Source: a virus. From it: a stretch of DNA of 64,000 nt. The stretch's first letter is position 1, and each line of letters opens with the position of its first letter. The position numbers were made by a program, and so were the translations under genes. The notes under the pieces are model-generated. The model had not been told where the DNA came from. It did no database searches and saw only the letters and a program-made list of their open reading frames with translations. The DNA lies in IMG/VR virus record IMGVR_UViG_3300007513_000009. One strand, written 5' to 3'. This document shows, in pieces, positions 1 through 55,844 of the stretch.

Positions 1-1
1 A

Positions 2-790
2 TTTGGGATAAGTTATCCAATATTAGATGGTGGTACAAGTGGTGGTGAAGCTTGGACACTTTATGGAGATGGATACATACCACATAATGTAGTATTAGAT
101 CATAACTACGAAGTTCTCTATACAGCTTCAGGATATTCTGAAGGTGCTATATTGGCTGCTATAGAATTAGGATTATCTTATATACCGAGAGATTTAGACC
201 AAGATGGTATACTGGATTCTATAGATAATTGCATAGACATACAGAACTATGACCAACTAGATACTGATGGGGATGGTATGGGTGACGCGTGTGATCAATG
301 TGACAATTTAGTATTTACAGGTGGGAATGTAGATGGTAATGGTACTATAGATATTTTAGATGTGATGTTTTTAGTAGATATGTTGTTGGGAACTGATACA
401 TATATTTGTGCAGAAGAAGCAGGAGACATAACACAAGATGGTTATTTGAATGTATTGGATGTCATAGGTTTGGTTCAAATTATATTAGGTGGTAATCAGC
501 AACAAGCTATGCAATACTTACAACAGATATTGGATCCAATTCAATTCAAACAATTGACACAAGAATTATTTATGGTAGAGGCACCCAAAGTACTTGTGTG
601 GCCTAATCCATCAAATAGTGTTATGAATATTACTGGTTATGGACATGTTCAGATATATGATATGTTAGGTAGAGAAGTATATAATAATCATTTAAATGGG
701 CATCATATTTGGGATACTCGTAAATTATCAAGTGGTATGTATGCTTTGGTTAATTATGGTGAGGTAGTTATAGTTACTTTATTAAAATAA
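2..790 (+). CDS. Secreted modular protein, 5' truncated: redoxin/thioredoxin-like C-terminal part + TSP3 Ca-binding repeats + dockerin-like domain + T9SS/Por-type C-terminal domain
   Basis: Frame is open from base 2 (FGISYPILD...YIPHNVVLDHNYEVLYT, redoxin-like). Then DLDQDGILDSIDNC/DTDGDGMGDACD (TSP3), paired GNVDGNGTIDILD / GDITQDGYLNVLD (dockerin), and VWPNPS...IYDMLGREV...LSSGMY (CTD). Confidence 0.75.
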   Translation, partial: FGISYPILDGGTSGGEAWTLYGDGYIPHNVVLDHNYEVLYTASGYSEGAILAAIELGLSYIPRDLDQDGILDSIDNCIDIQNYDQLDTDGDGMGDACDQCDNLVFTGGNVDGNGTIDILDVMFLVDMLLGTDTYICAEEAGDITQDGYLNVLDVIGLVQIILGGNQQQAMQYLQQILDPIQFKQLTQELFMVEAPKVLVWPNPSNSVMNITGYGHVQIYDMLGREVYNNHLNGHHIWDTRKLSSGMYALVNYGEVVIVTLLK

Positions 791-46475: not shown

Positions 46476-46546
46476 GCGGGTGTTGTATAATGGTATTACC
46501 CCAGCCTTCCAAGCTGGTGATGTCGGTCCGATTCCGACCATCCGCT
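46476..46546 (+). tRNA. tRNA-Gly(TCC), CCA not encoded
   Basis: Acceptor GCGGGTG/CATCCGC, anticodon arm CCAGC-CT-TCC-AA-GCTGG, T arm GTCGG-TCCGATT-CCGAC, U discriminator. Confidence 0.92.
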
Positions 46547-46574
46547 CAAAAATATATTTGTATTTAGGATTTTT

Positions 46575-51509: not shown

Positions 51510-52868
51510 GAGAGTGGAGCCAAAATTTGTTGGGGCACTATATATATTAAATCGTTAACTTAAATGGGAAGATATTTATTATTGAAATGGAAAATACACT
51601 AACAAATCCAAAAATAAACACTATTAGATTAGCTACCGTGGTAGATAGATTGATAGAATTGATTGTAGAGGATCCTACTATTGATGAAAGAACAAAAGAT
51701 TCATTAGAATGTATTACGGAAGATTTAGTGGATGTTATCAGTAGAGCTCAGTTGTTTGAACATAATGAAGAAGAATTGGAAGCATTGAGTTTTGAGGAAA
51801 TTAAAGAAATTCATATGATGAAACAAATTATGGATGATTTGATGAATGATAAGATTGGGCAAGCTTAACGAATGAAATAAAATGTTTAGTAATGAGTTTT
51901 ACGATGAACATTCATTTCCAAATGAAAATCATTATTTGGTAAATGGGAGTACAATGAATCAACTATTAATTGTTATTATGGGTTTAATTGAAGAGAGGCC
52001 CGAAATAAATGAAAAGTTTTTATTACCATTGGTGGAAAGATTAGTAGAAAGTGAAGAGATGAAAACATCAAGCAATTTGAATGAAATTTTAGATAGATGC
52101 GGATTAACCCTATATAATGGACAAGATGATGAAAGATAAACAAACCCATATAGTTAAGATGGATGATAAACAGGTTGACTTTTTGGTTAAATGTATTGAC
52201 ATAGCACAGGATACACAAAGTATTCATCCGGATTTAACGGAAAGTCAAATTATCAAACAACTAACCAATATATCACAAGCTCATGAAGATGATGAGTTAT
52301 CAGGATATGAATTAAAGTATGAATGAAATACTCAATATATTGATAATTCCAAATTATACACATTGGCACACCATAGTTGGGGTGTTGATTCTGATGGGGT
52401 TGATTGAATTGATAAATCATTGGTGGAACAATAGATTAAAATGAAGAAACCAATGAATTGGATTGAAGGTATGTCGTTGGAGTTAAAGGGAAAGAAAATA
52501 AAGGAAAGAATAAGATATTTAAGAAATGAATTAACTGCCGAGGGGCATTTGGATGGTTGGGTGTTAACAGGGTTAAAAAAAGAATATGAAGAACTTAAAA
52601 GACAAATTAAAATTTAAAAAAACTCTCCAAAGTCATACTCATCCTATAAAACCAAAAATGATTATAAAGAGTAAGTTGGATAAAGAGAAAGAAAGAAGAA
52701 ATCAAAAGATTAATTTGAGAAAAATGTTTGATGGATTGAATGACTTAAAATGAGTGAAGTTGAAGAGGCAAAATTAAGAGAAGAGATGATACTAATGTGG
52801 TGTCGTAATATAGGTAAACCATATATATTGAAAAGAATTTGGAAACGATTTATGGAGTGTATAGATAG

Positions 52869-53099
52869 ATGAATATTCATATTGAATATTGTGGGGAATG
52901 AAATTACAAACCAAGAGCCCTTAGTTTAAGGGAAGAGTTAAAGAGTAAGTTCGATATATTTAGATTTGAAATGATAGAAAGTGTCGGCGGAGTATTTGAA
53001 GTGAAGTTAAACGATCAATTGATTTTTAGTAAGAAGAATTTAAATAGATTTCCCAAAGATAATGAGATAATAGAGATTATCGAAGGAATGGATCAGTAG
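52869..53099 (+). CDS. SelW/SelT/SelH (Rdx-family) selenoprotein with in-frame UGA (CxxU)
   Basis: Translates as MNIHIEYCGE-U(TGA 52899-52901)-NYKPRALSL...GGVFEVKLNDQLIFSKKNLNRFP..., 76 aa. Rdx signatures lie on both sides of the UGA. Confidence 0.88.
52918..52932 (+). promoter_or_regulatory. Putative bacterial-type SECIS hairpin
   Basis: CCCTTA-GTT-TAAGGG stem-loop with loop G, starting 16 nt after the UGA. Confidence 0.6.
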
Positions 53100-54141
53100 C
53101 ATAATGGTTATGTTAGCAATACTATTTATACTTTGTTTACTATTTGGATATCTGATTGGTATAGAAAGTGAAAAGTATCCTAAATGAAGCAAGGAGAAAA
53201 AATGAAGGTTATTAAAAAGATAAAGAAGAAAAATATGAAGATTAATAAGATGGGATATGATAGTAGGAATCATTGGTGGTGGGTAACTAAAGGACATAAA
53301 TTATATATTAGAGATGAGAAAGCTAATTGGAATTTAGATAAAAATGGTGGAGAAGGATAATGAAAAAGAATAGCAAATTAGATAAATGTGTAGTATGTGG
53401 AGTGGATACACAATATAGAGTAGATGAACATATTGACTTCCGTATGGGTTATATTGAAGGATGTGGACAATTATGTTTAGATTGTTGGGATAAAATATAC
53501 TATAAACCGTTGATAGACAAATTGACAGAAACAGAAAAACAGAAAAACGGAATTGAGATTACAGTATGACATTCAAAGAATATAAAGATACATGGTTAAA
53601 AGAGAAGATATTTGTAGATGAGTATGGTAGAGACCACAACTTATCCGATACACCGATGACTATGATGAGTAGAAAAGATGCATATAATAAAAGAAAATTA
53701 TCAAATAAACAGATAAATAAAATATATAGTGATTGGATATTGAAAAACTATATGAAACACGCTGAGGTATAAAGTTATGAAAAAAAATAAATCTAAAGAA
53801 CCATTCCATATAGTGAATCGATATAAAAAGTACACTTCAACGGAAGGTTACTCATTTTGGGCAAAAAATGAAGAAGATGGTAAATTATATCTTCAACATA
53901 TGGGTTGGGGGTCAGATACATTGAAAGAAGTGAGTCCAAAATGATAGACTAAGATATACCTTATAAGAGTGGTACATATTCATTAATCACCACTCTTAAC
54001 CACAATTACCCACCTTATAATACTCTAATCATTACGATTAGGGTATTTTTTATATTATAATATAATCTCAAATATATATTGTCCACACACGCCGTGGTCG
54101 GAAAAAATCCCTAAGTTGAACAATATATGTAGATATAAAGC

Positions 54142-54695: not shown

Positions 54696-55844
54696 ATGAA
54701 TAAAACTATTGTAAAAATTGAGATGAGTGGGAATCGTTATAACGCGTACACTCAAAGTGGGGAGAAAGTCACTTCCCAAATTCTCACATCTACTCGAAAG
54801 TCTGCTTTCAATAAGGGTATGGCTTTGGAAAAAAGGGAAGGTAAAGGTGGAAGGGTTTATTGGTGGAAAGTACCAATGTCTGAATTCGATAATATAAGTA
54901 ATACTTTCGTTACACCACCATCTTCAGAAGTTGAAGTACCTACTGATCATGCTGAAGTGATGAATTTTATTTCTACTTCATATAGATTGAAACCTAAAGG
55001 TTTGGTAATGAGTGAACTTAAATGGAAGTATCTCATTAGGTCAGCCATTAGGGGTAAAAATATTATGATGACAGGGCAAGCTGGATGTGGTAAGACACTC
55101 GCGGCGAAGTCATTAATTAATTCACTCGATCGTCCATCATACTATTTCAATATGGGTGGGACACAAGATCCCCGATCTACTTTAATTGGGAACACTCATT
55201 ATAATAAAGAGAAAGGAACTTTCTTTTCTGAATCACTATTTGTAAAAGCTATTCAAACACCAAACTCTGTAATACTATTAGATGAGTTGACTCGGGCTCA
55301 CCCTGATGCGTGGAACATCTTAATGACAGTTTTGGATAGTGGACAGAGATATTTAAGGTTGGATGAAAAAGATGGAAGTGATACTATTAAGGTCGCAGAT
55401 GGTGTATGTTTCATAGCTACGGCAAACATAGGTAATGAATATACCTCCACAAGACAGTTGGATAAAGCTCTTATGGATAGGTTCACAGTAATCGAAATGG
55501 ACTTACTTAATGAAGAAGAAGAATTTGGATTACTTCGTTATATGTATCCATCAGTAGATGAAGGATTAATAACTGATGTATCTAAAATTGCCTATCTAAC
55601 GAGAAGTGAGTCAGAAAATGAAAATGCTAGAATAGGAAGTGGTATCTCTACTCGGACTTCGGTTGAAATAGTAGGATTACTTTTCGATGGTTTCTCACTT
55701 TTGGAATCCGCAGAAATCACCATCTATCCACAATATGATAATAGTGGTGGGGTAGATAGTGAAAGAACTTTCGTAAAGCAAATTGTTCAGAAATTTGTTA
55801 ATGACGAAAGTGGTGAAGAACTTTTTGATGAGGTAGAAGAATAA
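54696..55844 (+). CDS. MoxR/CbbQ-type AAA+ ATPase (CobS-like)
   Basis: GQAGCGKT, ILLDELTRA, ATANIG..Y, LDKALMDRF, ISTR. Confidence 0.9.
   Translation: MNKTIVKIEMSGNRYNAYTQSGEKVTSQILTSTRKSAFNKGMALEKREGKGGRVYWWKVPMSEFDNISNTFVTPPSSEVEVPTDHAEVMNFISTSYRLKPKGLVMSELKWKYLIRSAIRGKNIMMTGQAGCGKTLAAKSLINSLDRPSYYFNMGGTQDPRSTLIGNTHYNKEKGTFFSESLFVKAIQTPNSVILLDELTRAHPDAWNILMTVLDSGQRYLRLDEKDGSDTIKVADGVCFIATANIGNEYTSTRQLDKALMDRFTVIEMDLLNEEEEFGLLRYMYPSVDEGLITDVSKIAYLTRSESENENARIGSGISTRTSVEIVGLLFDGFSLLESAEITIYPQYDNSGGVDSERTFVKQIVQKFVNDESGEELFDEVEE

Follow-up and report, generated by a model that had tools for sequence, protein, structure and literature searches.

The window analysed here, a stretch of 64,000 nucleotides from IMG/VR virus record IMGVR_UViG_3300007513_000009, contains on its plus strand a SelW-like (Rdx family) predicted selenoprotein gene at positions 52869..53099. 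The gene is a single 76-codon frame that runs from an ATG (52869-52871) to a TAG (53097-53099) and includes one lone in-frame TGA at 52899-52901. When this TGA is read through, the product is a protein of 76 residues, MNIHIEYCGE-U-NYKPRALSL...GGVFEV...IFSKK...RFP, with 65 sense codons located after the TGA. The TGA closes a redox motif C-G-E-U (52890..52901, plus strand), in which the cysteine is encoded by TGT at 52890-52892 and the TGA is predicted to encode selenocysteine (Sec). The initial annotation of this DNA had proposed a hidden gene of this family with the frame MNIHIEYCGE-TGA-NYKPRA starting at the ATG 52869, and we confirmed this frame letter by letter. It had also stated that the gene escapes the ORF track. 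Indeed, the standard ORF list gives only a 42-aa fragment at this locus (52971-53099), and the SelW-like gene is therefore hidden from ORF callers.

Immediately upstream on the plus strand, a 40-aa ORF (52750..52872) without any Pfam family match ends in a TGA of its own (52870-52872), which overlaps the start of the SelW-like gene as ATGA. Thus, an ordinary TGA stop is located just 27 nt before the TGA that appears to be recoded. By sequence inspection we found a GGAG at 52854..52857 (plus strand), 11 nt before the ATG, which is a possible weak Shine-Dalgarno sequence and is not kept in the closest relative (L007). The SelW-like gene is followed 1.6 kb downstream by a gene for an AAA_5 (MoxR/CobS-like) ATPase (54696-55841); the remaining neighbours between 48.5 and 54.6 kb are small ORFs in which no Pfam family was found.

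The read-through product matched the Pfam family PF10262 (Rdx) with an E value of 2.8e-21 and 75.9 bits (cut-off 22.6), covering profile positions 1-73 of 74. Since this match spans the TGA, chance falls far short of explaining the reading frame. Two NCBIfam models were also matched above their cut-offs: NF041051 with 100 bits (cut-off 88) and TIGR02174 (CXXU_selWTH) with 70.2 bits (cut-off 34.2). The family motifs that had been pointed out from the letters, IxYCxx(C/U), G.FEV, SK and FP, are all present. In an alignment of 48 sequences, with the window protein as the first row, the residues G40, G41, F43, E44 and V45 (G-G-x-F-E-V), I52, F53, S54 and K55 (with the F-S-K motif), and F61 and P62 are invariant.

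The AlphaFold model of the 76-residue product (pLDDT 94.7, pTM 0.83) begins with a strand and a helix, continues with three strands and ends with a helix, i.e., a thioredoxin-like beta-alpha-beta-beta-beta-alpha fold, and its C8-G-E-U11 loop leads from strand 1 (residues 2-8) into helix 1 (residues 14-27). The top Foldseek matches were exclusively SelW-related structures (TM 0.84-0.91), with TM 0.88-0.91 to 2fa8, 2obk and 2ojl; mouse SelW gave 0.77. The model superposes on Atu0228 of A. tumefaciens (2fa8), the proteins of V. cholerae (2p0g) and P. fluorescens (2obk), mouse SelW (2npb) and human MIEN1 (2ljk) with TM 0.77-0.91 and an rmsd of 1.1-2.5 A. A profile built from the relatives retrieved mouse SelW, MIEN1 and the SelW-related proteins of known structure with a cysteine aligned at the TGA position, and this alignment covers residues 2-72 of the phage protein. 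The solved bacterial SelW-related structures are all CxxC forms, whereas the phage gene encodes a CxxU form. We conclude from sequence, motif and fold that the protein is a member of the SelW-like/Rdx family. To our knowledge, no bacterial SelW-like protein has an established biochemical function or a defined substrate, and the fold therefore does not reveal the substrate of the phage protein.

A search of 5.8 billion proteins yielded 73 relatives. Nearly all of the database entries inspected either have a tryptophan at the TGA site or start just past it, and in every relative for which DNA was retrieved, this tryptophan corresponded to a TGA in the nucleotide sequence. The tryptophans are thus gene-caller artefacts that result from applying code 4 to short contigs. 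In two longer bacterial contigs, the gene ends at the TGA and carries the JGI annotation selenoprotein W-related. As a consequence of such calls, the catalytic residue is incorrect in about 70 of the 73 database entries, because the Sec codon was translated as Trp or the gene was cut at the TGA.

We combined the relatives with retrieved DNA with the best 80 loci from a collection of bacterial genomes with one genome per species. In all 93 of these loci, phage and bacterial, the CxxU codon is TGA, and a Cys form was present in none (0/93). Neither a sequencing error nor a private nonsense mutation can therefore explain the TGA. A sequencing error had been named in the initial annotation as an explanation that would speak against a selenoprotein, together with a pseudogene whose close relatives all carry cysteine with other inactivating lesions. 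The same TGA was present in 17 IMG/VR contigs (10 distinct sequences around the UGA), and the homologues have neither Cys forms nor other lesions.

The SECIS-like hairpin CCCTTA-GTT-TAAGGG that had been noticed 16 nt after the TGA was found at exactly this position, within the coding sequence (52918..52932, plus strand). Its 6-bp stem is formed by CCCUUA (52918-52923) and UAAGGG (52927-52932), and its loop is GUU (52924-52926). The stem begins 16 nt and the loop G is located 22 nt past the UGA, at the same position in 65 aligned homologues. In bacteria, SelB recognises a hairpin at such a distance with a conserved apical G-U, as in the E. coli fdhF SECIS, and the bSECISearch model allows a spacing of about 16-37 nt between the UGA and the apical loop.

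The isolated hairpin folds at -6.3 kcal/mol (z -1.5), and the fold energies of the 65-nt and 23-nt segments are likewise unremarkable (z -1.3 to -1.5). The case for a SECIS is therefore based on covariation and not on stability. We aligned 65 distinct sequences without gaps from 6 nt before to 45 nt after the UGA. In the six column pairs of the stem, 92.8% of the cells were paired compared to 72.1% in shuffled alignments (0 of 500 as high), and pairing fell to 26-49% when the partner columns were slid by 1-3 positions. Five of the six stem pairs changed on both sides (77 double-sided cells), and the covariation score was 0.654 versus 0.255 in the shuffles and at most 0.26 after sliding. The loop columns G32 and T33 were conserved to at least 90%. 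When the 14 distinct phage-type sequences were analysed alone, 96.4% of the cells were paired, three pairs had changed on both sides, G32 was invariant and T33 was conserved to at least 90%. Many of the compensatory changes affect synonymous third positions (CTT/TTA to CTC/TTG, GCC/AGG to GCT/AGA), and these changes are unexplained by protein constraints. Judged by this covariation, the hairpin at 52918-52932 is the conserved predicted SECIS of the family with its G-U loop.

Compared to the Marinimicrobia hairpin (-13.4 kcal/mol), those of the phages are short and weak, with -4.2 to -6.5 kcal/mol and z about -1.4, so decoding efficiency may be low. A search of positions 52700-53200 with Rfam 15 matched no family even at E values up to 10; since a hairpin of 15 nt carries too little information, this result tells little.

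For an in-frame TGA, the use of this codon in the rest of the genome has to be considered. The source IMG/VR record has 131 kb, an estimated completeness of about 70% and nearly all of its genes on one strand. Read with code 11, the ORFs of at least 80 aa on the coding strand span 120.8 of the 131 kb (92% coding density), and TGA terminates 38 of these 150 ORFs (25%). The statement of the initial annotation that TGA ends many other genes and that no global recoding occurs was therefore upheld, and code 4 or 25 was rejected on stop-codon usage and coding density. The tRNAs detected in the 131-kb record are two tRNA-Gly(UCC), one at window positions 46476-46547 and the other about 0.9 kb past the window end (G000:C1:34254-34326); the scan revealed nothing else and no suppressor tRNA.

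The contig belongs to a distant, uncultured marine T4-like (Straboviridae-type) phage, as shown by its T4-type family B polymerase and its large co-directional genome. The DNA polymerase (phrog_262, E 2.9e-190) is encoded about 50 kb upstream of the SelW-like gene on the same strand. Among deposited sequences, the polymerase of Microcystis phage Mel-JY01 is closest to it (45% identity), and those of T4-like cyanophages and vibriophages come next; the best matches in INPHARED were 31-45% identical and came from T4-like cyanophages. Blastn of the SelW locus and tblastn of the protein against INPHARED both gave zero matches, and thus no deposited phage genome there has a close relative of the SelW-like gene.

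The gene is nevertheless not confined to this record. An exact-motif scan for IEYCxx-TGA-NY over 2.9 million viral contigs gave 19 matches, 17 of which were full-length SelW-like genes with TGA and hairpin on contigs of up to 216 kb; these 17 contigs include duplicates of one another or of loci found earlier. Repeating the scan with TGA replaced by TGY gave 16 matches, none of them an Rdx homologue, so no viral Cys form was found with this motif. The neighbours of the related phage loci encode gp32, UvsX/RecA, RNaseH, a 5'-3' exonuclease, NUDIX and ThyX proteins in combinations that differ between loci: Fe-S assembly genes in L098 and L115, ThyX and a PRTase in L116 and L011, and NUDIX, gp32 and UvsX in L106. 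We found no conserved gene neighbourhood among the phage loci, and synteny therefore offers no functional clue.

In two of the viral contigs, of 216 kb and 82 kb (L098:737-4508 and L115:7056-10827), the SelW-like gene follows a cluster for an IscS/NifS-like cysteine desulfurase, NifU/IscU and a DUF59 protein, and is itself followed by a glutamine-synthetase-like gene. Selenocysteine could be a further substrate of a class-V aminotransferase of this type.

In a maximum-likelihood tree, the phage-type sequences formed one clade (SH-aLRT 95) separate from all 80 bacterial loci. This tree was built on 80 columns and most of its deep forks are poorly resolved; at this resolution, the phage clade was not nested in the Marinimicrobia. 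The phage copies have diverged down to 59% amino acid identity. Among the phages, the dN/dS ratio of the codons after the UGA was 0.08-0.5 where dS was unsaturated, indicating protein-level selection within phages past the 'stop'.

The same genome carries another predicted selenoprotein gene, whose C-terminal 262 codons occupy window positions 1..790 on the plus strand. In full length, the gene comprises 385 codons, and its start lies 367 nt ahead of the window (L097:253-1410, on the minus strand there); its TGA is located 134-136 nt before window position 1 in the motif F-T-S-W-U-P-S-C. The predicted product consists of a signal peptide, a redoxin domain of the AhpC/TSA type encoded across the TGA, TSP3/dockerin-like repeats and a C-terminal sorting domain of the type 9 secretion system (T9SS). 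Its homologues in four Marinimicrobia-type genomes (G001-G004) are 63-68% identical over about 270 residues, and each of the four has one TGA at the same W-U-P-S-C motif. Between the phage and the bacteria, the hairpin of this gene shows a compensatory change from C-G to U-A. The identity to the homologue in G005 was 44%. In 80 other genomes across the phylum, it reached at most 32-48% over partial matches (best match 32%, E 5e-42), and in five other Sec-using genomes of the FCB type the best match was 29% identical. A scan of the 131 kb for further in-frame TGA codons near a cysteine revealed nothing with convincing context beyond these two genes.

Directly upstream of the second selenoprotein gene and outside the window lies a 663-aa ORF (G000:C1:99798-100640, minus strand). 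It gave weak split matches to the C domain of the ribonucleotide reductase (RNR) large subunit and probably encodes a divergent RNR.

As suggested in the initial annotation, we looked for the Sec machinery in both the phage and its candidate host. SelB (PF09107), SelA (PF03841), SelD (TIGR00476) and tRNA-Sec were searched for in the 131-kb record and none was found; the contig is about 70% complete, and phage-borne Sec genes may lie in the other 30% or so of the genome. One apparent tRNA-Sec match in the phage (25 bits, cut-off 47) was really an ordinary tRNA-Gly(UCC). Among the five bacterial genomes whose cellular SelW-like genes are closest (G001-G005) are a Marinimicrobia single-cell genome, TMED46 and a Neomarinimicrobiota MAG. 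All five possess a tRNA-Sec above the Rfam cut-off, and SelB was found in four of them. The local GC content of these Marinimicrobia genomes (about 36%) is compatible with that of the phage (31.8%). It is moderately likely, judging from the sequence comparisons, that the phage infects, or has recently swapped genes with, a narrow Sec-decoding lineage of SAR406; this assignment is derived mostly from one shared gene, the second selenoprotein, and from the compatible GC content.

Several other explanations for the in-frame TGA have to be weighed. One of the standard amino acids Trp, Cys and Gly might be inserted at the UGA, be it through near-cognate or suppressor decoding or because the host uses code 4 or 25; the result would be a CxxW, CxxC or CxxG protein. 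The translation of about 70 homologues with W by public gene callers and the two tRNA-Gly genes of the phage could be taken in this sense, but the W calls on short contigs are caller artefacts and both tRNAs have the anticodon UCC, not UCA. Moreover, TGA ends a quarter of the long ORFs in a genome with 92% coding density under code 11, the family has its catalytic Sec or Cys at this site, and general read-through would not need a covarying hairpin of the SelB type with a G-U loop. We consider decoding as a standard amino acid very unlikely. Still less probable, and in our view barely credible, is that the contig is a chimera or mis-binned bacterial DNA and the gene is bacterial rather than viral. 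The record is metagenome-assembled (IMG/VR), and marine bacteria commonly carry SelW-like genes (PMC2398784). However, the gene is embedded well within a co-directional T4-like genome of 131 kb whose polymerase gene lies on the same strand about 50 kb upstream, 17 other viral contigs carry it next to genes such as gp32, UvsX, RNaseH or ThyX, and none of the 80 bacterial loci falls within the phage clade.

The gene could also be a decaying or silent passenger acquired from a Sec-using bacterium; the host would fail to decode it, and translation would end after 10 residues. The missing Sec machinery in the phage record, the weakness of the phage hairpin and a host that is only deduced speak for this reading. 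Against it, the phage copies constitute an old clade that has diverged to 59% amino acid identity, and no copy has lost the UGA, the open frame or the hairpin, which is maintained via compensatory changes. The dN/dS ratio after the UGA is well under 1, and a second selenoprotein gene has been retained in the same genome. We therefore regard a silent passenger as unlikely.

Taken together, positions 52869-53099 very probably contain a functional SelW-like CxxU gene that is decoded with Sec by the host machinery, as judged from the sequence evidence. The proposal in the initial annotation that the phage uses the host SelAB system to make a redox selenoprotein is thus supported by the HMM matches, the conserved TGA, the covarying hairpin, the stop codon usage and the tRNA-Sec and SelB of the candidate host lineage. 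During infection, a complex of host SelB, GTP and Sec-tRNA(Sec) would bind the hairpin 16-30 nt downstream of the UGA at 52899-52901, with the conserved apical G-U as the predicted SelB contact. Selenocysteine would then be delivered to the ribosome at the UGA and replace termination. In this scheme, the phage would contribute the mRNA signal alone, and SelA, SelB, SelD and tRNA-Sec would come from the host, which most likely belongs to a narrow Marinimicrobia (SAR406) lineage. We infer Sec insertion, the identity of the host and the physiological role of the protein from sequence and model evidence.

The protein probably acts as a cytoplasmic CxxU thiol/selenol-disulfide oxidoreductase that aids phage metabolism or redox balance. 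Since the gene neighbourhoods vary between the phages, its physiological role is a conjecture. Thioredoxin/glutaredoxin of the NrdC type in T4 is the electron donor for the phage RNR. Like NrdC, the SelW-like protein is a small thioredoxin-fold protein of the dithiol type, and both occur in early or DNA-metabolism regions of T4-like phages, an analogy that would fit a similar task. In contrast to NrdC, to which it has no sequence relationship, the phage SelW-like gene has no conserved linkage to RNR genes. A glutaredoxin (PF00462) was not found in the 131 kb (about 70% of the genome), and an RNR-like gene is present. A reductant role resembling that of NrdC is possible by analogy, but the variable synteny lends it no support.

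The phage gene shares with the bacterial SelW-like genes (PF10262, TIGR02174, NF041051) the fold, the C-x-x-U motif after strand 1, a length of about 75 aa and, within the ORF and at the same codons, a SECIS hairpin whose loop has a G-U. It differs from them in being carried by a T4-like phage and belonging to a separate phage-only clade, in its AT-rich and weaker hairpin, and in that no Sec machinery was found in the 131-kb record of its carrier. The viral selenoproteins listed in a review on recoding are only two glutathione peroxidase (GPx) genes of poxviruses, MC066L of molluscum contagiosum virus (a GPx1 homologue) and the GPx4 homologue of fowlpox virus (PMC8310308). Common to these and the phage gene are the capture of a cellular redox selenoprotein gene and full reliance, predicted in the case of the phage, on Sec insertion by the host, and in fowlpox virus the SECIS is also within the coding region. 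The poxviruses, however, are eukaryotic viruses with eukaryotic SECIS elements (SBP2/eEFSec) and proteins of the GPx family, whereas the phage gene has a bacterial SelB-type hairpin right after the UGA and belongs to the SelW family.

SelW-like proteins form the selenoprotein family of highest abundance in marine metagenomes, with 427 Sec and 56 Cys forms in the GOS data, and phages go unmentioned in that survey (PMC2398784). In a later survey, the metalloprotein and selenoprotein families examined lacked viral sequences or had very few of them, except for RNR II, plastocyanin and Cu-Zn SOD (PMC9402790). The initial annotation had described such genes as rarely reported for phages. A full-text literature search revealed no report of phage-encoded selenoproteins at all; its coverage is incomplete, and 'unpublished' is therefore provisional. 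The protein family and its SECIS were already known; what appears to be new is the carrier, a phage clade with Sec-only copies that rely on recoding by the host. There is a good likelihood that a clade of marine T4-like phages encodes selenoproteins decoded by host SelB, and that this phage, with a probable host among the SAR406/Marinimicrobia, has two such genes, for a cytoplasmic SelW-like protein with CxxU and for a secreted, T9SS-tagged redoxin with UxxC.

If this is true, bacteriophages are a previously unrecognised reservoir of selenoprotein genes, part of the most abundant selenoprotein family of the ocean (SelW-like) is viral, and the success of an infection is tied to the selenium status of the host. 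A phage gene whose function requires SelA, SelB, SelD and tRNA-Sec of the host would represent an unusual dependence, and as only Sec users could serve as hosts, the gene would provide a built-in marker of host range. Marine surveys credit SelW-like genes to bacteria, and estimates of microbial selenium use would need revision if many of these genes are viral. For annotation, it matters that gene callers truncate such genes or render the UGA as Trp. The second selenoprotein would link the phage to uncultured SAR406, a group with scarce phage-host links. Furthermore, the phage hairpin of 15 nt is a naturally small predicted SECIS that would be suited to recoding assays.

In two of the Marinimicrobia-type genomes, we also observed clusters of paralogous genes similar to redoxins and the 'Omp28-related selenoprotein' (G003:C8:9146-25843 and G004:C37:99422-116404), several of them with one in-frame TGA. 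This suggests a selenoprotein-rich locus of the SAR406 lineage.
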